The notes: generated from the sequence alone by a model not told the origin. A DNA stretch of 64,000 nucleotides from Escherichia coli (GCF_016903815.1 NZ_CP069973.1), one strand, 5' to 3'. Positions 1-21,276 are shown, counted from the stretch's first letter. Numbers and translations are program-made.

Positions 1-1325
1 CTTACTTCGGTTTTGAAATTCCGAACGCGCCGGGCAAATATTTCTACGTCTGGCTGGACGCACCGATTGGCTACATGGGTTCCTTCAAGAATCTGTGCGA
101 CAAACGCGGCAACACCACCAGCTTCGATGAATACTGGAAGAAAGATTCCACCGCCGAGCTGTACCACTTCATCGGTAAAGATATCGTTTACTTCCACAGC
201 CTGTTCTGGCCTGCCATGCTGGAAGGCAGCAACTTCCGCAAGCCGACTAACCTGTTTGTTCATGGCTATGTGACGGTGAACGGCGCGAAGATGTCCAAGT
301 CTCGCGGCACCTTTATTAAAGCCAGTACCTGGCTGAATCATTTTGATGCTGACAGCCTGCGTTACTACTACACTGCGAAACTCTCTTCGCGCATTGATGA
401 TATCGATCTCAACCTGGAAGATTTCGTTCAGCGTGTGAATGCCGATATCGTGAATAAAGTGGTTAACCTGGCATCCCGTAACGCTGGCTTTATCAACAAG
501 CGTTTTGACGGCGTGCTGGCAAGCGAACTGGCTGACCCGCAGTTGTACAAAACCTTCACGGATGCCGCTGAAGTGATTGGTGAAGCGTGGGAAAGCCGCG
601 AATTTGGTAAAGCAGTACGCGAAATTATGGCGCTGGCTGATCTGGCTAACCGCTATGTCGATGAACAGGCTCCGTGGGTGGTGGCGAAACAGGAAGGCCG
701 CGATGCCGACCTGCAGGCAATTTGCTCGATGGGCATCAACCTGTTCCGCGTGCTGATGACTTACCTGAAGCCGGTACTGCCGAAACTGACCGAGCGTGCA
801 GAAGCATTCCTCAATACAGAACTGACCTGGCATGGTATCCAGCAACCGCTGTTGGGCCATAAAGTGAATCCGTTCAAGGCGCTGTATAACCGCATCGATA
901 TGAAGCAGGTTGAAGCACTGGTGGAAGCATCTAAAGAAGAAGTAAAAGCCGCTGCCGCGCCGGTAACTGGCCCGCTGGCTGACGATCCAATCCAGGAAAC
1001 TATCACCTTTGATGACTTCGCCAAAGTTGACCTGCGCGTGGCACTGATTGAAAACGCAGAGTTTGTTGAAGGTTCCGACAAACTGCTGCGCCTGACGCTG
1101 GATCTCGGCGGTGAAAAACGCAATGTCTTCTCCGGCATTCGTTCTGCTTACCCGGATCCGCAGGCACTGATTGGTCGTCACACCATTATGGTGGCTAACC
1201 TGGCACCACGTAAAATGCGCTTCGGTATCTCCGAAGGCATGGTGATGGCTGCCGGTCCTGGCGGGAAAGATATTTTCCTGCTAAGCCCGGATGCCGGTGC
1301 TAAACCGGGTCATCAGGTGAAATAA
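1..1325 (+). CDS. metG: Methionyl-tRNA synthetase, 3' portion (5' end lies upstream of the window), including the C-terminal tRNA-binding domain
   Basis: Frame open from window start; translation contains [15 protein letters not shown] and the C-terminal [29 protein letters not shown] module; ends ...PGHQVK. Confidence 0.95.
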
Positions 1326-1334
1326 TCTCCTTTC

Positions 1335-1372
1335 AAGGCGCTGTATCGACAGCGCCTTTTCTTTATAAATTC
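1335..1372 (+). terminator. Rho-independent terminator after metG
   Basis: Inverted repeat aaggcgctg / cagcgcctt with loop tatcga, followed by ttttcttt. Confidence 0.7.
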
Positions 1373-1465
1373 CTAAAGTTGTTTTCTTGCGATTTTGTCT
1401 CTCTCTAACCCGCATAAATACTGGTAGCATCAGCATTCAACTGGATAAAATTACAGGGATGCAGA

Positions 1466-4400
1466 ATGAGGCACTTTATCTTTCAGGACGAAAAATCACA
1501 TAAATTCTGGGCGGTGGAGCAACAGGGAAACGAGTTGCATATCTGTTGGGGAAAAGTTGGCACCAAAGGGCAAAACCAGGTAAAAAGTTTTGCGGATGCT
1601 GCGGCAGCGGCAAAAGCGGAGCTTAAGCTGATCGCAGAGAAAACGAAAAAAGGCTATGTGGAAAATGCTTTAGCAAACGTGCATATCCCCCCCATCACCA
1701 AAGCCACTCCTGAAGTTGAAACCTCCCCTGAGAGTAAAAACAAACGCCCATGGGTGGCTGATGATGCAGTCATTCCGGTAACTGGCGATATTAATCGATT
1801 TGCTTTTCCTCATCGCTCTCGCCCCAGAGAGATCAATTATCTGTACAAAGATGGCCAAATATGGAAGCGCATCGCGAATAACACCAGGGCATATGACCCC
1901 GACAATAATTACCGCTCTTATCCTGAAAACTGGCAGCTGGCGTTTGCCGAGTTACAAAGGCGAATTCTGAATAATCAACAAACAGGAAGTATACAATCTG
2001 ATGCGGCATTGCTCTGGAATTTATGGAACTCTTACTCTACAGATGAACTGGTCGATGACTTAGTCATTCGCTGTGGTCTGGAAACTACCGTTGAAATCGC
2101 CCTTCTCGCTCTTCAACTCAAATATAAACCAGTAAAAGCCGACGTCACCACCATTATTCCCCCTGATCTCAAAGCAGAATCACTACCGAACTGGCATCAA
2201 CGTCTATGTCATCATCTTTCACTCGCTTCAGAAGATGAGTGGCAACGCTGTGTAGATAAAGTTCTCGCTGCTATTCCCTCGCTATCCCCAGCACGGCAAC
2301 CTTTTGCGGCGTTACTGCTCCCTGAACGCCCGGATATTGCCAATGCTATGGCGCTACGTTATGCAGATCAAAACGTTCCGGCGATGACCTGGTTAAGACT
2401 GGTGGTAACCGATGACGCCGCTCTGACTACAGCAGAAAAATACGACTTCCCACCGTTGTATCATGATTTTCGCGCTTATCTGGCAATGTTGCTGGCAAAT
2501 AATGGGGTGCGCGGTGTAAGCCGGATACTTCTTGAGTTTACGGAAGAGCATTCTGACAATCCCACTTATCTCTTCGAGCGCATCAGCGAGACTGAAGATC
2601 TTGTCAAATGGCTATGGAAAACGAATCACCCGGATGCGATTCAAATTCTGATCCTCGGTGTAATTGGCAAGAAAAAGCACCTGGAATACTTAAGCAAAGC
2701 CTGTCAAAAACATCCCGCTGCGGCTCTTGCCGCTTATGCAACTTTACTGGCAATACATGAAGATGCACAGTGGCGTAAAGCGCTTGTCAAACTGATTACC
2801 GCCACGCCAGATTTAGTCACTGACGTCATTCCCTGGGTTAATGCTAAAGCGGCAGGCATCTTATCTGAATGTCGTACTCAGTTAGTCGCTGAAGAATGTG
2901 AATACGCCACTGCGGATATGTTGCCGGAGCTGTTTGTCGCTCCACCGTGGGTAATAAATAAGAAAACGAATGTAATACCCGTATTTGATTTACCGGTGCT
3001 TCCCATCCCTGCAGTCACTGACATCACGCCAGGAATTACAGAGTTAATCAGTCATACTGACATATCCAGATTCAGTGAAATCGCGCAATATCAGTCATCA
3101 CAGCAAACCTTATTTACCGACCTGCCACTAATTGAAAAAGAAAGCTGGGAGACATCTTTCATTCCTTTTACACCAGAACAACAAATCCTTTGGCAATTAG
3201 GTTTTAATGAATGGCTGCATTGCGAAGATGACTTACATGAAAAAAAATATATACCGCAAAGCGCTGTTGATGCCTTGTTGCGCTTTGATTTTCCAGCACT
3301 AAAAGCTGAGTTTGCGAAATATCACAACAATGCCAACAAAAGCTGGAATCTATCTGCGCTTTGTTACTTACCGGGACAACAGGCGATTTCATTTCTCAAC
3401 CAAATAATCATTGAGGAGCGATATTCAGGTGAGAAAGAGATTCTGGCAGTTTTTGGTAGTACGGCCATTCCTGCGTTTATGACCTGCTTGCAACGAGATC
3501 ATCAACGACTGTGGATATTCACCCTCTTTATTGGGGCCAGTGAACTAGCCTTACCAATGGCGCAGCGGTTACAGAAAAAAATGGCTTACAAGGATGCCAT
3601 TAATTGGCTGGCAAATAACCCGCGCCATGCCGCCGCCGGGCTACTGCCTTTGGCGCTGGGCAAACCGTGCCAAAATCGGGAATATGCCCGCCAGGCATTC
3701 CGCCTGCTAGTGAAATTAAACCAGCGAGAAACGATTGAAGAAATCGGCCGGAGATACAACCAACCTGATGTTTTAGCTGCGCTGGCAACATTGTTCGATA
3801 GCGATCCGCTGGAAGAATATCCCGCTAAAATCGCCCCACTGCCCGGCTTTTATCAGTTCACCTTATGGCGCAGACCACGGCTTAAAAGTAACAACCTGCC
3901 TCTGCCAGATGACGCTATGCGCCACCTGGGCACAATGTTGAGCTTTCCACGCGACATTACCTCCTACGCTGGGCTGGCGACCATCAAAGAGACCTTCACC
4001 CACGAATCACTGGCTGACTTTGGCTGGGATCTCTACACGGCATGGACAGAAGCTGGCGCACCCGCAAAAGAAAACTGGGCATTTACTTCGCTTGGGATTT
4101 TAGGCAATGACGACACCGCACGTAAATTAACCCCGCTTATCCGTGCCTGGCCGGGTGAATCCCAGCATAAACGCGCGGTTTACGGGCTGGATGTATTAGC
4201 TGATATTGGCAGCGATGTTGCGCTAATGCTGCTTAATGGCATCGCGCGAAAAATTAAATTCAAAGCATTACAGGAACATGCCCGCGAGAAAATCAACATA
4301 GTTGCTGAAAACCGTGGGCTGACTATGGCTGAACTGGAAGACCGCCTGGCTCCAGATTTAGGGCTTGATAACAGTGGCTCGCTGATACTGGATTTCGGCC

Positions 4401-5263
4401 CACGTCAATTCACCGTTGGTTTTGACGAAACCTTAAAACCTGTAGTGCACGATGCAAACGGCAAAGTCCTGAAAGATTTACCCAAACCAAATCAGAGCGA
4501 TGATCAAACACTGGCAACTGACTCCGTTAACCTCTTCAAACAATTGAAGAAAGATGTGCACGCCATTGCCAGCCAGCAGATTGATCGTCTGGAGCAGGAT
4601 ATGTGCCAGCGCAGACGCTGGACGGCAGAGCAGTTCCGCCTGTTTCTGGTGGAGCATCCGCTGGTACGTCACTTAACCCGACGGGTGTTATGGGGGGTAT
4701 ATACTGAGGAAAACACGCTGATCGCCTGCTTCCGGGTCGCAGAAGACAGCACTTACAGCGATGCGCAGGATGAGTTATTCACGCTGCCAGCAGGAAACAT
4801 CGGTATACCGCATGTGCTGGAAATATCTCCTGAATCCGCCACTGCATTTGGGCAAATTTATGCTGATTACGAAAAGCTTCCTCCCTTTCGCCAACTCGAT
4901 CGTGGTTATTACCACCTTACTGATAATGAACGTGATACCCATGAATTGATACGCTGGCAAGGACGTCTTTGCCAGGCCGGGCGCATTGTCGGGCTGGAAC
5001 GTCGAGGCTGGCAACGTCTGGAAGAAAGCGGCAGCGTCTATGCGATGCGCAAATCTACCCCTTATGGCGCTCTCGAACTTGAAACAGAACATTTTTCATT
5101 AATTTATGGCGAAACGGGGTATAGCGACCTGCTACCTGTTGAAAGCGTAAAAATCACTTCACCAGGGGAACGCTACAGTACACAGCCCTCGCTCACGTTC
5201 TCCGCGCTTGATGCCATCACCGCCAGCGAACTCATTAACGACATCGAATCACTTTTTGATTAA
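1466..5263 (+). CDS. molR: Giant 1265-aa protein with N-terminal WGR-like domain and conserved C-terminal module (MolR-like, putative molybdate metabolism regulator family)
   Basis: ATG preceded by GGGA; N-terminus FIFQDEKSHKFWAVEQQGNELHICWGKVGTKGQ matches the WGR signature; position directly after metG and length match my memory of MolR; ORF appears intact. Confidence 0.75.
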   Translation: MRHFIFQDEKSHKFWAVEQQGNELHICWGKVGTKGQNQVKSFADAAAAAKAELKLIAEKTKKGYVENALANVHIPPITKATPEVETSPESKNKRPWVADDAVIPVTGDINRFAFPHRSRPREINYLYKDGQIWKRIANNTRAYDPDNNYRSYPENWQLAFAELQRRILNNQQTGSIQSDAALLWNLWNSYSTDELVDDLVIRCGLETTVEIALLALQLKYKPVKADVTTIIPPDLKAESLPNWHQRLCHHLSLASEDEWQRCVDKVLAAIPSLSPARQPFAALLLPERPDIANAMALRYADQNVPAMTWLRLVVTDDAALTTAEKYDFPPLYHDFRAYLAMLLANNGVRGVSRILLEFTEEHSDNPTYLFERISETEDLVKWLWKTNHPDAIQILILGVIGKKKHLEYLSKACQKHPAAALAAYATLLAIHEDAQWRKALVKLITATPDLVTDVIPWVNAKAAGILSECRTQLVAEECEYATADMLPELFVAPPWVINKKTNVIPVFDLPVLPIPAVTDITPGITELISHTDISRFSEIAQYQSSQQTLFTDLPLIEKESWETSFIPFTPEQQILWQLGFNEWLHCEDDLHEKKYIPQSAVDALLRFDFPALKAEFAKYHNNANKSWNLSALCYLPGQQAISFLNQIIIEERYSGEKEILAVFGSTAIPAFMTCLQRDHQRLWIFTLFIGASELALPMAQRLQKKMAYKDAINWLANNPRHAAAGLLPLALGKPCQNREYARQAFRLLVKLNQRETIEEIGRRYNQPDVLAALATLFDSDPLEEYPAKIAPLPGFYQFTLWRRPRLKSNNLPLPDDAMRHLGTMLSFPRDITSYAGLATIKETFTHESLADFGWDLYTAWTEAGAPAKENWAFTSLGILGNDDTARKLTPLIRAWPGESQHKRAVYGLDVLADIGSDVALMLLNGIARKIKFKALQEHAREKINIVAENRGLTMAELEDRLAPDLGLDNSGSLILDFGPRQFTVGFDETLKPVVHDANGKVLKDLPKPNQSDDQTLATDSVNLFKQLKKDVHAIASQQIDRLEQDMCQRRRWTAEQFRLFLVEHPLVRHLTRRVLWGVYTEENTLIACFRVAEDSTYSDAQDELFTLPAGNIGIPHVLEISPESATAFGQIYADYEKLPPFRQLDRGYYHLTDNERDTHELIRWQGRLCQAGRIVGLERRGWQRLEESGSVYAMRKSTPYGALELETEHFSLIYGETGYSDLLPVESVKITSPGERYSTQPSLTFSALDAITASELINDIESLFD

Positions 5264-5275
5264 AAGGACTTTGCA

Positions 5276-8200
5276 ATGAAAACCTATATTTATCAGGACG
5301 AAAAATCACATAAATTCTGGGCGGTGGAGCAGCAGGGAAACGAACTGAATATCAGTTGGGGCAAAGTCGGCACCAACGGGCAAAGTCAGGTAAAAAGCTT
5401 TGCAGATGCTGCGGCGGCGGAAAAAGCGGAACTCAAGCTGATTGCGGAGAAAACGAAAAAGGGGTATGTGGAACATGCGGAGAATGCTACATCGAAACAT
5501 ACTCGAACGGTAACGAAATCTCTCGAATTATCTGACTTTTCTACCATCATTCAGGAACAGCCCTCAGTTACACCAGAATTCTACGTGGCTGACAAAAATA
5601 CAGACGTTATTTTACCGTGGCTGGCAAAAGATATTGCTGTCGTTTTTCCGCTTGAAGTCGTACCCACCACCTTAAGCCATCGCCGCTTTCCCGGAGATCC
5701 TGTTACACCTGTAGATAAATTAACCCAGTTACGTCGCTTAGCCTGTGGCGTGTCGCAACGGGATAACAAAACAGCTACATTTGACTTCAGCGCCTGTACT
5801 TTAGAGTGGCAAAACTTCATCGCTCAGGCGATCGATCTGATTAACAGCCCGAAAACGACAAAATTACCATCACCGGTAATGGCTGTACTCGCGGCACTTG
5901 AACTGCACTGCACGAGATATAAAGAGCGTGCGGATGTTATGGATCAGATTATTCAGGAAGGCGGTCTGGAATATGCTACTGATGTAATAATACATCTTCA
6001 ACAAATATCTATTGAATGGGATTATGTCAACAATAATATTGTTTTCCTGTCGTCTGGCATTTCACCTGATTATTTGCAGCAATATTCCAGCTTTGAATTA
6101 CGCCTACGTAAACATTTATCACTGGCGGAAGAGTCTCTCTGGCAAAAATGTGCACAAAAACTTATTGCCGCAGTTCCACATATTCCAGAATGGCGGCAAC
6201 CATTAATTGCTTTGTTATTGCCCGAAAAACCAGAAATTGCACATGAAATTGCCCAGCGTCTACTGGGGCAAAAGAAATTACCCTCGCTGGAGTGGCTAAA
6301 AATAGTGGCGACTGATGAGCACATTCTTGCCTCATTAGAAAAATATCACGAGCCATATGCCATTTTTGATGATTACTATTGTGGTGCGATATGGTCAGCC
6401 ACCGTATTACAGGAGCAAGGTGTTGCGGCCCTGCCCCGATTTGCTCCCTATGTCGCAAGTGACTACTGCGCCGATGTGTTGCGTCATATCAATCATCCGT
6501 TCGCATTAACACTGCTTATACGTGTAGCAGGGCATACTAAACGCTGTCACGATCGAATGACGAAAGCCTGCGCTGCGTTCCCACACGCAGCACTGGCAGC
6601 ACTGGCGGAACTTCTAGTGCAAAAAGAAGAGAATAGTTGGCGCATTATGCTAATGACGATGCTTATCTCGCAACCGACACTAGCAGAACAGGTCATTCCC
6701 TGGCTTTCGACACCCGCAGTTGCAGTGCTGAAATCATGCCAGCAACAACTGACACAGCCCTCAAACCATGCCAGCGCCGATCTACTGCCGGCCATAGTAG
6801 TCTCCCCACCATGGCTTTCGAAAAAGAAAAAATCGCCGATTCCAGTGCTTGATTTAGCACCATTAGGTATTGAGCCAATCAGTTATCTGACAGAAGAAAT
6901 CAGTAATCAACTTTTGGCGAAATATATCTGGTATTCAAAACACATCACGGTTAGTCATGAAGAAAGTACTGCCAATCTGTTGGCAAGGATGGGTTTTCAA
7001 CGACGGATCGCTGGTACATATATTAAAGCTCCCGAAGCGGTAGTTGAGGCATGGCTAAATGAAGATTATTCAACTTTAATAAGTGAATTTAAGGTGTTTC
7101 ATTCACCTACCGGGCATTATTGGCATTTGGGGATTTTGACAACATTGCCGCTGGAGAAAGCAGTAAGAGCATGGAATGCCCTTACTCTATCTCCGCATAC
7201 CGATACCGAATACGCCATGTTACATTTTGGACTCAAAGGATTACCTGGGTTAGTAAACTCACTTGCACGCTATCCACAGGAAGCCTTGCCCATAACGAAT
7301 TACTTCGCAGCGAGTGAGCTGGCACCTGCCGTCGCCCGCGCCTTCAACAAACTCAAAACCCTACGACAAGACGCCCGCACCTGGCTGCTGAAATACCCGG
7401 AACACGCCATTACCGGCCTGCTGTCTGCGGCGCTCGGCAAAGCCGGTGAAGCACAGGATAACGCCCGCGCTGCATTGCGTATGCTTACCGAAAACGGTCA
7501 TCAACCATTACTGCAAGAAATCGCCCGGCGTTATAACCAGCCGGAAGTAACAGATGCGGTGAACGCTATGCTTGCGCTCGATCCCTTAGATAATCACCCG
7601 ACAAAAATCCCCACTCTTCCGGCCTTTTATCAGCCATCGATCTGGACCCGCCCGGTATTAAAAGCAAATGCCCAATCACTGCCCGATAGCGCACTCCAGC
7701 ACCTCGGTGAAATGCTCCGCTTCCATCAGGAGGAGGCGCTGTATCCGGGATTATTGCAGGTGAAAGATGCCTGTACCGCCGACTCACTGGCTGAATTTGC
7801 CTGGGATCTGTTTACCGCCTGGCAGACCGCTGGCGCGCCGTCGAAAGAGAGTTGGGCGTTCACTGCGTTAGGCGTTCTCGGTAACGATGACACCGCCCGC
7901 AAACTGACGCCATTAATACGCGCCTGGCCTGGTGAATCCCAGCATAAACGCGCCACCGTCGGGCTGGATATCCTCGCCGCTATCAGTAGTGATATCGCCC
8001 TGATGCAGCTTAACGGCATTGCCCAGAAACTGAAATTCAAAGCATTACAGGAGCGGGCGAAAGAGAAAATTGCCGACATTGCCGAAAGTCGCGAACTGAC
8101 GGTAGCGGAGCTTGAAGATCGGTTAGCACCGGCTCTCGGTCTGGATGATAACGGTTCGCTGCTGCTGGATTTTGGCCCACGGCAGTTCACCGTCAGCTTT

Positions 8201-9070
8201 GATGAAACCTTAAAACCGTTTGTGCGCGATGTTTCCGGCAGCCGCCTGAAAGACTTACCTAAACCCAATAAAAGCGATGATGAATCACAGGCAAACGATG
8301 CTGTTAACCGCTACAAATTGCTGAAAAAAGATGCGCGTACCGTCGCCGCCCAGCAGGTAGCAAGGCTGGAATCCGCCATGTGCCTGCGCCGCCGCTGGTC
8401 GCCGGAAAACTTTCAGCTCTTCCTGGTTGAGCATCCGCTGGTTCGTCACTTAACCCGCCGTCTGATTTGGGGCGTTTATAGCGCCGAAAACCAGCTACAG
8501 GCGTGCTTTAGGGTGGCGGAAGATAACAGCTACAGCACCGCTGACGATGATCTTTTCACCTTGCAGGAAGGCGATATCTCTGTTGGCATTCCTCACGTTC
8601 TGGAAATATCACCGACGGATGCTGTCGCCTTTGGTCAGCTTTTTGCCGACTACGAACTGCTACCACCGTTCCGTCAGCTTGAACGTAACAGTTACGCCCT
8701 GACAGAAGCCGAGCGCAACGCCAGCGAACTGACCCGCTGGGCAGGCAGAAAATGCCCGAGCGGCCGGGTCATGGGGCTGGCAAATAAAGGCTGGATAAAG
8801 GGCGAACCACAGGATGGAGGCTGGATCGGATGGATGATCAAACCTCTCGGTCGCTGGTCGTTAATCATGGAAATCGACGAAGGTTTTGCGGTGGGTATGT
8901 CACCAGCCGATCTTAGCGCTGAGCAGGTCTTAAGCAAGCTGTGGCTATGGGAAGGCAAAGCGGAAAGCTATGGCTGGGGGAGTAATTCAACTCAGGAAGC
9001 GCAGTTCTCCGTGCTCGACGACATCACCGCCAGCGAACTCATTAACGATATTGAAGCCCTGTTTGAATAA
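5276..9070 (+). CDS. yehI: Second giant 1264-aa WGR-domain paralog (YehI-like)
   Basis: Starts 12 bp after the previous stop; N-terminal ~65 aa and C-terminal ~400 aa nearly identical to the upstream paralog, middle strongly diverged. Confidence 0.75.
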   Translation: MKTYIYQDEKSHKFWAVEQQGNELNISWGKVGTNGQSQVKSFADAAAAEKAELKLIAEKTKKGYVEHAENATSKHTRTVTKSLELSDFSTIIQEQPSVTPEFYVADKNTDVILPWLAKDIAVVFPLEVVPTTLSHRRFPGDPVTPVDKLTQLRRLACGVSQRDNKTATFDFSACTLEWQNFIAQAIDLINSPKTTKLPSPVMAVLAALELHCTRYKERADVMDQIIQEGGLEYATDVIIHLQQISIEWDYVNNNIVFLSSGISPDYLQQYSSFELRLRKHLSLAEESLWQKCAQKLIAAVPHIPEWRQPLIALLLPEKPEIAHEIAQRLLGQKKLPSLEWLKIVATDEHILASLEKYHEPYAIFDDYYCGAIWSATVLQEQGVAALPRFAPYVASDYCADVLRHINHPFALTLLIRVAGHTKRCHDRMTKACAAFPHAALAALAELLVQKEENSWRIMLMTMLISQPTLAEQVIPWLSTPAVAVLKSCQQQLTQPSNHASADLLPAIVVSPPWLSKKKKSPIPVLDLAPLGIEPISYLTEEISNQLLAKYIWYSKHITVSHEESTANLLARMGFQRRIAGTYIKAPEAVVEAWLNEDYSTLISEFKVFHSPTGHYWHLGILTTLPLEKAVRAWNALTLSPHTDTEYAMLHFGLKGLPGLVNSLARYPQEALPITNYFAASELAPAVARAFNKLKTLRQDARTWLLKYPEHAITGLLSAALGKAGEAQDNARAALRMLTENGHQPLLQEIARRYNQPEVTDAVNAMLALDPLDNHPTKIPTLPAFYQPSIWTRPVLKANAQSLPDSALQHLGEMLRFHQEEALYPGLLQVKDACTADSLAEFAWDLFTAWQTAGAPSKESWAFTALGVLGNDDTARKLTPLIRAWPGESQHKRATVGLDILAAISSDIALMQLNGIAQKLKFKALQERAKEKIADIAESRELTVAELEDRLAPALGLDDNGSLLLDFGPRQFTVSFDETLKPFVRDVSGSRLKDLPKPNKSDDESQANDAVNRYKLLKKDARTVAAQQVARLESAMCLRRRWSPENFQLFLVEHPLVRHLTRRLIWGVYSAENQLQACFRVAEDNSYSTADDDLFTLQEGDISVGIPHVLEISPTDAVAFGQLFADYELLPPFRQLERNSYALTEAERNASELTRWAGRKCPSGRVMGLANKGWIKGEPQDGGWIGWMIKPLGRWSLIMEIDEGFAVGMSPADLSAEQVLSKLWLWEGKAESYGWGSNSTQEAQFSVLDDITASELINDIEALFE

Positions 9071-9079
9071 GGAAAGAGC

Positions 9080-19665: not shown

Positions 19666-20397
19666 ATGGCGCTTTACACAATTGGTGAAGTGGCGTTGCT
19701 TTGTGATATTAACCCTGTCACGTTACGCGCGTGGCAGAGGCGTTACGGATTGCTGAAACCGCAACGGACAGACGGCGGCCATCGGCTGTTCAACGATGCC
19801 GATATTGACCGGATCCGCGAGATCAAACGCTGGATCGACAACGGCGTGCAGGTCAGCAAAGTTAAAATGCTGCTCAGTAATGAAAATGTTGATGTGCAGA
19901 ACGGCTGGCGCGATCAGCAAGAAACATTACTGACTTACCTGCAAAGCGGCAATCTGCATAGCCTGCGAACGTGGATCAAAGAGCGCGGTCAGGATTACCC
20001 CGCCCAGACGCTCACCACACATCTGTTTATTCCTCTGCGCCGACGACTTCAGTGCCAACAACCGACTCTCCAGGCGCTGCTGGCGATCCTCGACGGCGTA
20101 CTGATCAACTACATCGCCATTTGCCTGGCTTCGGCACGTAAAAAACAGGGTAAAGATGCGCTGGTGGTTGGCTGGAATATTCACGATACCACCCGTCTGT
20201 GGCTGGAGGGCTGGATTGCCAGTCAACAAGGATGGCGCATTGATGTCCTCGCCCACTCGCTCAATCAACTACGCCCTGAACTGTTCGAAGGCCGTACATT
20301 GCTGGTGTGGTGCGGTGAAAATCGAACCTCCGCCCAACAGCAGCAACTCACCAGTTGGCAGGAACAAGGCCATGATATTTTCCCACTCGGCATTTAA
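19666..20397 (+). CDS. mlrA: MerR-family transcriptional regulator, 243 aa
   Basis: N-terminal MerR HTH YTIGEVALLCDINPVTLRAWQRRYGLLKP. Confidence 0.9.
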   Translation: MALYTIGEVALLCDINPVTLRAWQRRYGLLKPQRTDGGHRLFNDADIDRIREIKRWIDNGVQVSKVKMLLSNENVDVQNGWRDQQETLLTYLQSGNLHSLRTWIKERGQDYPAQTLTTHLFIPLRRRLQCQQPTLQALLAILDGVLINYIAICLASARKKQGKDALVVGWNIHDTTRLWLEGWIASQQGWRIDVLAHSLNQLRPELFEGRTLLVWCGENRTSAQQQQLTSWQEQGHDIFPLGI

Positions 20398-20456
20398 TCA
20401 TTCGTTAACAAATGCGCTTTACTGTACAATCCTTTCGTTAACATAAGGAGTGCATC

Positions 20457-20564
20457 ATGCGCATAGCTAAAATTGGGGTCATCGCCCTGTTCCTGTTTAT
20501 GGCGTTAGGCGGAATTGGTGGCGTCATGCTCGCAGGTTATACCTTTATTTTGCGTGCTGGCTAA
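20457..20564 (+). CDS. yohO: Small hydrophobic membrane protein, 35 aa
   Basis: Strong SD taaggag 7 bp upstream of [38 protein letters not shown]; 3' end overlaps yehW convergently. Confidence 0.6.
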
Positions 20565-21276
20565 GCGCCTGCACCAGCCTTTCAAACAGGCGGTCTGCAA
20601 TGATCGCCGCCAGTGCCACCAGTAACGCCCCCTGGATCACATACGCGGTATTAAATCCGCTAAGCCCGATGATGATGGGCGTACCCAGCGTGCTGGCCCC
20701 TACCGTTGAGGCGATCGTCGCCGTACCAATGTTGATAATCACCGAAGTTCGCACGCCCGCCAGAATCACCGGAGCCGCCAGCGGTAGCTCGACCTTACGC
20801 AGTCGCTGACCACGGCTCATTCCCATACCTTTCGCAACTTCTGTCACGCTGACATCAATCGCTCCCAGCCCGGCAAGTGTCGCCTGCAGGACGGGCAGCA
20901 CGCCGTAAAGGATCAAGGCGATAATCGCGGGTTGCAGACCAAAGCCGATCACCGGAACGGCAATCGCCAGCACCGCAACGGGCGGAAAAGTCTGCCCAAC
21001 GGCGGCAATAGTTTCCACCAGTGGGCGAAATTCCGCGCCCCACGGGCGAGTAACAATAATTCCGGCACCAGTACCAATGATCACCGCAAACAAACTCGAA
21101 ATTCCCACCAGCCAGAAATGAGCCAGTGCCAGAGCTGCAAAGCTTTCCTGCTGATAAACGGGTCGTGGCAGTTGTGGGAACAAGGCAGCAAACAGCGGCT
21201 GGCTGTAAGGCAGCCAGAAAAGCAGTGCCACAAACAAAGCAATGAGCCAGAACAGCGGATCGCGCAACATCTTCAT
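20545..21276 (-). CDS. yehW: ABC transporter permease (osmoprotectant uptake system)
   Basis: 243-aa polytopic membrane protein in the yehZYXW cluster. Confidence 0.9.

Follow-up and report, generated by a model that had tools for sequence, protein, structure and literature searches.

Downstream of metG on the chromosome of Escherichia coli strain 7/2 lie two tandem genes of about 3.8 kb, each encoding a WGR domain and a DUF4132 domain, which we call gene A (1466..5263, + strand, 1265 aa) and gene B (5276..9070, + strand, 1264 aa). Positions count from the first letter of the stretch analysed, 64,000 nucleotides of GCF_016903815.1 NZ_CP069973.1, hereafter the window. The two genes resemble each other in patches, and we consider the best explanation to be domain constraint combined with exchange between old paralogs in the WGR-coding 5′ end, with crossover hybrids in other strains, a reading to which we assign a probability of roughly 0.8. 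A and B would be old tandem paralogs that, together with yehI, form a three-gene array heading the yehL-yehM-yehP-yehQ operon. Purifying selection would keep the WGR domain and the C-terminal region alike in protein as the centre and tail drift, and homologous recombination between the copies would act in a 5′ segment of ∼190 nt encoding the WGR domain and probably in the last ∼60 nt. The main homogenisation would have preceded the split of the Escherichia species, with short conversion patches added later, and the 5′ direct repeats, 3.8 kb apart, would also serve as a crossover site. Deletions there would join the A promoter and the first 15–168 nt to the body of B, and ∼70% of E. coli would have the resulting hybrid as their only WGR gene, the molR pseudogene of K-12 being one example. 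The conserved ends may further have acted as anchors for swapping whole central blocks across strains and species.

The gene order was taken from RefSeq annotation and a list of open reading frames. Aligned with blastn, A and B share only three alignable pieces: gene nt 9–203 (87.7% identical), nt 2521–3438 of A against nt 2488–3411 of B (70.3% over 930 nt) and the last 67 nt (85.1%). The first piece falls on the WGR-coding 5′ segments (1466..1663 in A and 5276..5473 in B, + strand). The second corresponds to the conserved 3′ regions (3986..4903 and 7763..8686, + strand), in which HEAT-like helices run, in A, into Pfam DUF4132 (4460–5011). The third forms the extreme 3′ ends (5197..5263, ITASELINDIESLFD, and 9004..9070, ITASELINDIEALFE, + strand). 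Between the first two pieces, the linker and variable helical centre (1664..3985 in A and 5474..7762 in B, + strand) cannot be aligned as DNA and retain 32% amino acid identity, against 43% for the proteins overall. The uneven divergence that a first-pass annotation of this DNA had noticed by reading the sequence thus holds on a computed alignment, as do its near-identical WGR 5′ ends and its matching stretches in the 3′ third and at the 3′ end. Its strongly diverged middle is real too, though it spans ∼770 codons (A aa 67–833) and not ∼600. All of the strings that it quoted occur in both genes, with offsets of 1–4 nt: a 39-mer (TCAGGACG...GGAGCA) at 1483 and 5293 (previously placed at 1481 and 5291), CAGGGAAACGA at 1523 and 5333, CCTGGCC at 4146 and 7923 followed by a 23-mer at 4154 and 7931, and the 24-mer CACCGCCAGCGAACTCATTAACGA at 5218 and 9025 (previously 5219 and 9029).

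A conversion tract in the WGR-coding 5′ end is borne out by lower silent divergence, by trees that disagree between regions and by mosaic alleles, all of which are observed. Silent divergence was measured as the proportions of synonymous (pS) and nonsynonymous (pN) sites that differ, computed by the Nei–Gojobori method (NG86) on a codon alignment of A and B. In the WGR domain (codons 1–66) pS is 0.44 and pN 0.06, as compared with 0.74 and 0.46 in the centre, 0.71 and 0.19 in the conserved 3′ region (A aa 834–1151), 0.67 and 0.48 in the variable tail, and 0.45 and 0.15 in the last 23 codons, which hold 16 synonymous sites only. Over several alleles and species, the A–B pS is 0.46 inside the WGR segment and 0.70–0.75 outside it, and WGR pS to Erwinia is 0.73–0.74. 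At residues identical in A and B, the same codon is used in 36 of 50 cases in the WGR domain and in 232 of 496 elsewhere (Fisher p 0.0009 for a region chosen beforehand, p ∼0.05 after scan-statistic correction). In the conserved 3′ region, pS is 0.70 between A and B, 0.68 between A and Erwinia and 0.66 between B and Erwinia, all of them saturated. Because the protein is conserved but the silent sites are saturated, the similarity of the 3′ third is attributable to purifying selection alone. Gene conversion of both ends, as the first-pass annotation had proposed, is therefore retained for the first ∼190 nt, is plausible for the last ∼60 nt, and is abandoned for the 3′ third.

Two individual matches in the 3′ third were considered as separate candidates. 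The 31-nt match at 4146/7923 was dropped as a conversion tract, being unsupported by pS and by the same-codon scan. Its 23-nt run at 4154 sits in an invariant motif, AWPGESQHKRA, with pS of 0.55–0.63 in nearby codon windows; a run of that length has a probability of ∼8% by a hand estimate in 930 nt at 70% identity, and taken alone it is unremarkable. A secondary same-codon cluster at A aa 968–1037 proved marginal only (p=0.05–0.07). At the other end, CAGGACGAAAAATCACATAAATTCTGG (1484–1510 and 5294–5320; gene nt 19–45), encoding QDEKSHKFW, is near-invariant across the Escherichia copies. Over these codons (7–15) Erwinia differs at only two to three silent positions, although the remaining WGR segment is saturated against Erwinia, and the low silent change here may reflect codon preference or a constraint on the 5′ mRNA. 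An Rfam scan of 1–12000 returned no match, which gives no known RNA element behind the conserved 5′ stretch. With codons 7–15 left out, the A–B pS of the WGR segment is 0.50 against 0.78 to Erwinia, and the result holds.

The trees change with the region in the same way. They were built by neighbour-joining on Kimura protein distances with 300 bootstraps, using Erwinia and, as betaproteobacterial and gammaproteobacterial outgroups, Iodobacter, Chitinibacter and a metagenome-assembled genome (MAG) of Rhodanobacteraceae. WGR columns unite A and B in 290 of 300 bootstraps, whereas the non-WGR columns unite B with Erwinia in all 300 (centre 300, conserved region 249, tail 284). The region-dependent trees and the silent sites agree that the common ancestor of the two WGR segments is younger than that of the gene bodies. 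Amino acid identity between B and Erwinia (WGR 64%, centre 46%, conserved region 77–81%, tail 53–56%) follows a profile of the same shape as that between A and B. Four tandem paralogs of Massilia rubra likewise show 0.67–0.82 in WGR, about 0.4–0.55 over most of the centre with higher values toward the conserved region, about 0.65–0.85 in the conserved region, and 0.40–0.48 in the tail. Because Massilia and the B–Erwinia comparison show the same shape, the patchy profile is a property of the protein family and not in itself evidence of conversion. The four M. rubra paralogs have no pS dip in WGR, which rules out a general rule that tandem arrays homogenise their WGR ends.

Comparison with other Escherichia species dates the exchange. 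Escherichia whittamii and Escherichia sp. E1V33 carry the order A-B-yehI-yehK-yehL, and Escherichia sp. MOD1-EC7003 has a three-gene array too, with a first-position paralog of a different type; we conclude from these three that the three-gene array is ancestral in Escherichia. Within one genome, WGR pS between A and B is 0.45 in the window, 0.52 in E. whittamii and 0.40 in E1V33, whereas across species it is 0.18 between window A and E. whittamii A and 0.14 between window B and E1V33 B. WGR orthologues of other species are thus closer than the paralogs that share a genome, so the main homogenisation of the WGR segment predates the Escherichia radiation, and the concerted evolution that the first-pass annotation had suggested does not, in the strict sense of the term, describe these genes.

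Twelve loci from diverse E. coli strains provide the mosaic alleles. Genes of any type are 81–99% alike over nt 1–150; further in, A-type and B-type genes share 35–60%. In a polymorphism table of the WGR segment (21 sequences, 195 nt, 48 informative sites), 571 of 1128 site pairs are incompatible by the four-gamete test, the minimum number of recombination events (Rm) is 23, and a test akin to the pairwise homoplasy index (PHI) gives p=0.002. The first gene of MS20675, which is of type A, has a B-like WGR patch that matches second-position genes at places where window A resembles K-12 molR. In window B, polymorphic-site tables and the alignment show codons 2–5 (MKTY) to be specific to second-position genes, and an A-like patch occurs at about nt 170–185. 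Most telling are the examined strains with a single WGR gene, in each of which that gene is a hybrid whose 5′ end comes from A and whose body comes from B. In MS1685 the junction falls at nt 146–156, with 27 of 28 informative sites to the left equal to window A and 1509 of 1561 to the right equal to CUVET B. In M160133 it falls at nt 129–141 and is followed by the window B allele, 100% identical in most 150-nt windows of the centre. K-12, MLI106K2 and Ec-042 have their junction at nt 161–168, and E2348/69 at nt 15–25. All four distinct junctions lie within the WGR-coding repeat, at nt 15–168, and they supply the cross-strain breakpoint comparison that the first-pass annotation had called for; they point to recurrent direct-repeat deletions, or to one deletion with later crossovers in the same repeat.

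The hybrid is the majority state. A type-A body, counted when at least 80% of A nt 1–2435 was covered, is kept in only 1628 of 5426 complete E. coli genomes (∼30%), from which we take ∼70% of E. coli to carry the hybrid. With hybrid single genes in these strains and a multi-copy state that is ancestral, unequal crossover between the tandem copies is observed on both counts. In K-12 the position of the array is occupied by yehF+yehH (the molR pseudogene), followed by yehI, yehK and yehLMPQ. Gene B is the counterpart of this molR, with 92% nucleotide identity to K-12 molR and to MLI_1, and of the copies it lies nearest to the single gene of Erwinia. Genes of the array are often pseudogenes. Frameshifts disrupt K-12 molR, the hybrid of E2348/69 and gene B of O157:H7, whose gene A is interrupted by an internal stop. 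In MLI106K2 and Ec-042 it is yehI that is broken, and MLI106K2 has IS1 in the place of yehLMPQ.

At the extreme 3′ end the signal points the same way on fewer sites. Over the last ∼57 nt pS is 0.40 between A and B (0.40–0.48) against 0.60–0.73 to Erwinia, on only ∼12.5 synonymous sites, and two two-codon haplotypes, GAACTC and GAGCTG, are each found in both A and B alleles. The last ∼60 nt is probably a small second exchange tract or a crossover anchor, which as a reading of the sequence is weakly supported, and the case for 3′ exchange stays weak because of the small number of synonymous sites. The first-position gene of MOD1-EC7003 (locus L016, 1–3544) is a fourth paralog type, with 45% amino acid identity to B and 39% to A; its last ∼66 nt and the 12-nt spacer after them are nevertheless those of A, which fits ends that serve as crossover anchors when gene bodies are swapped. 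The 5′ end of this gene is lost at the end of the contig.

The centre follows a different course. Against window B, the B alleles of MS20675 and CUVET are 46–67% identical over nt 150–1280 and 1566–2073 and 84–99% elsewhere, and the A alleles of KOr019 and O157 are 66–82% identical to window A over nt 1512–2256. In these divergent blocks pS reaches 0.6–0.8 (0.64–0.81 in the B blocks), against 0.09–0.19 in metG and 0.06–0.17 in yehL. Both of these baselines are between E. coli strains; we take such values, even in the housekeeping gene metG (75–1325), to lie above those typical of core genes, and they may reflect the zone of high diversity known around the rfb O-antigen cluster. MS20675 B and MOD1-EC7003 B are identical at 85% of central amino acids, and their block class is therefore common to two species. 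The ratio of nonsynonymous to synonymous divergence (omega) is 0.2–0.45 in the centre and 0.03–0.15 in the conserved 3′ region. In 100-codon windows no convincing omega above 1 was found, such values appearing only where there are almost no substitutions. The centre is thus weakly constrained and built from old recombining lineages. The diversifying centre that the first-pass annotation had described is half right: this is the least constrained part of the genes and its alleles differ by whole blocks, but positive selection is not supported at the resolution of these windows. A special similarity of yehI to particular B alleles was not seen, its central identity being 37–38% to all of them. 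Whichever region is compared, A diverges more than the other copies.

Several observations weigh against the explanation by constraint and 5′ exchange. In the window pair alone the silent signal is modest (corrected p ∼0.05 on ∼39 synonymous sites), and the 39-nt exact run is due partly to the constraint on codons 7–15. Long-branch attraction, acting on the fast-evolving A, may have exaggerated the grouping of B with Erwinia, the trees being neighbour-joining with Kimura distances only. The A-like state at nt 170–185 of window B recurs in the B gene of another species and may be an old polymorphism, and allelic recombination between strains could mimic some of the paralog-to-paralog patches. 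The evidence at the 3′ end comes down to ∼12 synonymous sites, and SELI.D is a family consensus motif, which makes the amino acid similarity there ancestral. The detailed sample comprises only 16 E. coli genes and 5 from other Escherichia species.

There are three other ways of accounting for the mosaic. It could be argued that the whole pattern, including the 5′ end, is a product of purifying selection plus codon or 5′ mRNA constraint, with no exchange at all; the amino acid profile shared by the Massilia paralogs and by B and Erwinia, the saturated pS of the 3′ third, and codons 7–15 that are near-invariant even to Erwinia would all be expected. We regard this as unlikely, and for the 5′ end as largely refuted. 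WGR silent sites are free to change, at 0.73–0.78 to Erwinia and with 48 informative sites within Escherichia, yet A and B differ by 0.46–0.50; the topology switches between WGR and the other columns; and A/B hybrids exist with four junctions. Ongoing concerted evolution of both terminal domains (WGR and the DUF4132 third), with positive selection on the centre, would account for the terminal similarity, is helped by the support for WGR exchange, and fits an omega that is highest in the centre. It nevertheless seems very unlikely to us, as the 3′ third is about as far from its paralog (0.70) as from Erwinia (0.66–0.68) and places B with Erwinia in 249 of 300 bootstraps, and as in-genome WGR paralogs (0.40–0.52) are less alike than cross-species orthologues (0.14–0.18). 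The central omega of 0.2–0.45, with saturated pS in the blocks, indicates age rather than speed.

The remaining account holds that A and B arose by a recent duplication in Escherichia, after which the A protein accelerated everywhere except in WGR, making the union of B with Erwinia a long-branch artefact. The divergence of A in all regions, the single gene of Erwinia and the proneness of neighbour-joining to long-branch attraction are what such a history would produce. An accelerated protein leaves pS unchanged, however, and the A–B pS is 0.70–0.75 outside WGR against 0.46 inside it; A and B are, moreover, already distinct and conserved in position in E. whittamii and E1V33. We consider a recent duplication highly improbable, and the preferred explanation remains constraint on the conserved domains with exchange in the 5′ WGR segment of old paralogs, of which the A segment (1466..1663) holds all of the hybrid junctions found in other strains.

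In the window the gene order is metG, gene A, gene B, a truncated yehI, yehM remnants, yehP, yehQ, yehR and onward. The 3′ part of metG (75..1325, + strand, from RefSeq annotation) forms the fixed upstream boundary of the array and is followed by a terminator-like hairpin found by a terminator scan (1335–1358). Gene A, identified as an open reading frame, matches Pfam WGR (PF05406) at aa 5–67 (E 9e-18) and DUF4132 (PF13569) at aa 999–1182 (E 3e-48), and B carries the same domain names in RefSeq. The A–B spacer is 12 nt long, with an AAGGA ribosome-binding site, and a 9-nt spacer separates the end of B from yehI (9080..11278, + strand), the third paralog, which is without a WGR domain and is here truncated (95% identical to K-12 yehI nt 1–2175). 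Relative to K-12, a deletion of 3992 bp (K-12 locus 8458 to 12451), with an 11-nt overlap at window ∼11248–11258, joins yehI nt ∼2179 to the middle of yehM; yehK and yehL are missing entirely, together with the 3′ part of yehI and the 5′ part of yehM. The yehI and yehM remnants are annotated as pseudogenes in RefSeq. A and B are intact in 7/2 although the presumed partner machine (YehL/YehM) is broken by this deletion. In other strains yehK (∼105 aa, after yehI) differs in length and annotation (20276–20581 in loci L004 and L005, 20263–20616 in L006, 19992–20377 in L010), and the yehK–yehL spacer can be as short as ∼300 nt or exceed 1 kb.

The operon to which the array belongs consists of the DUF4132 gene or genes with yehL (a MoxR-type AAA+ ATPase), yehM (DUF5682), yehP (VWA) and yehQ (SWIM), and this DUF4132-yehLMPQ arrangement is met again in Proteobacteria, Myxococcota and Actinobacteria. 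When one genome per species was scanned, the DUF4132 family proved to be widespread. Of 63 other-species loci, ∼45 have at least yehL and yehM homologues beside the DUF4132 gene or genes and ∼24 have all four, counts made by hand from the locus listing, with several loci stopping at a contig edge. Three Erwinia genomes have a single WGR-DUF4132 gene directly before yehLMPQ. Independent tandem expansions of DUF4132 genes lie upstream of yehL homologues in Massilia (up to about eight), Duganella (three to four), and Nocardia and Glycomyces (five), and the copies in the eleven expanded loci are a mix with and without WGR. A 2.8-kb contig binned as a Collinsella MAG encodes gene A residues 44–991 at 96% identity and is almost certainly a mis-binned E. 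coli fragment.

AlphaFold2 models built from family alignments give a WGR fold at residues 1–67 that matches the WGR domains of PARP1 and PARP3 and the structure 2ra8. In B, residues 70–110 are predicted to be disordered and to be followed by a helical-repeat centre and a C-terminal module (predicted local distance difference test, pLDDT, 91.5) of HEAT-like helices with an alpha/beta part that has no solved relative. A sequence search of the PDB returned 2ra8 only, for WGR. NCBIfam gave no characterised family, the WGR part matching only a Leptospira family, at a level far under the cutoff of that family, beside weak AAA and VWA matches, and PADLOC-DB 2.0 (E≤0.01) had no family for A, B, truncated YehI, YehK, YehL, YehM, YehP or YehQ. 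No functional study of the operon was found in the literature searched. A paper on type I toxin-antitoxin systems reportedly mentions yehI and yehL (PMC2887945). Expression of yehL and yehM is de-repressed in hns/stpA mutants (PMC3686432), and the literature also yielded a transposon insertion site in ST131 (PMC9334617).

We propose that the WGR domain, which in PARPs is a fold that binds nucleic acid, and the C-terminal module may dock onto an invariant YehLMPQ, leaving the centre to bind a ligand or target. Unlike PARP1, PARP2 and PARP3, these proteins have no PARP catalytic domain and the yehI paralog lacks WGR, and their nucleic-acid binding is only putative. Where a single invariant machine is accompanied by several variable first-gene products, these may be adaptor or sensor subunits. 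Taken further, the array could supply a widely conserved MoxR-DUF5682-VWA-SWIM machine with sensors or adaptors, as a polymorphic repertoire, for example in conflict or anti-phage functions, in which the centres would set recognition and the ends would be both docking modules and recombination anchors for cassette swap, duplication and deletion. We put this forward as a possible but doubtful proposal. If true, it would account for the tandem expansions in Massilia, Duganella, Nocardia and Glycomyces, for central blocks older than the Escherichia species, and for the frequent pseudogenisation.

Interlocus conversion and unequal crossing-over are exemplified by tufA/tufB in enterobacteria and by the human Lepore-type globin and opsin hybrid genes, and the yeh genes resemble these cases in exchanging short tracts with lower synonymous divergence, in the conflict between the trees of tract and flanks, and in fusions of a 5′-upstream part to a downstream body by deletion. 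Unlike those genes, the yeh paralogs are not kept identical, orthologues being closer than paralogs, and exchange reaches only ∼190 nt into the 5′ end, and perhaps ∼60 nt into the 3′ end, of genes 3.8 kb long, whose other parts are too diverged to recombine. Conserved flanks with swappable cassettes are known from type I restriction systems, in the target-recognition domains of hsdS, and from O-antigen clusters of E. coli with their rfb-linked high-diversity zone. As at those loci, yeh alleles differ by blocks at 46–67% nucleotide identity with sharp edges beside conserved segments, different first-position bodies share the same 3′ end and spacer, and regional diversity is raised (metG pS 0.09–0.19). 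Unlike them, the yeh locus is without invertase or shufflon machinery, its omega is below 1, and a specificity role of its central blocks is a proposal. RavA-ViaA is a system of a MoxR AAA+ protein and a VWA partner, and the yeh operon, which is conserved, likewise combines a protein annotated as a MoxR-family AAA+ ATPase (YehL) with one annotated as VWA (YehP), beside its DUF4132 gene or genes. What it has in addition is DUF5682 (YehM), a zinc-finger protein of the SWIM type (YehQ) and from one to about eight WGR/DUF4132 genes, and yehL is deleted in the 7/2 window.

Homologous exchange and unequal crossover of tandem paralogs is a well-known mechanism; this instance of it, including the hybrid origin of K-12 molR, appears to be undescribed in the literature searched. 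It accounts for a long-standing oddity, the molR (yehF/yehH) pseudogene of K-12, which arose by recombination between two ancestral genes; K-12 has lost one of the two. For scans of paralogous genes it carries a caution, in that patchy similarity between paralogs is mostly domain constraint and conversion is demonstrable only with outgroups and synonymous sites. With its variable copy number, deep allelic blocks and recurrent loss, the metG-yeh locus is among the more polymorphic non-mobile loci of the E. coli chromosome, and it is part of an operon of five genes whose conservation extends from Enterobacterales to Myxococcota and Actinobacteria.

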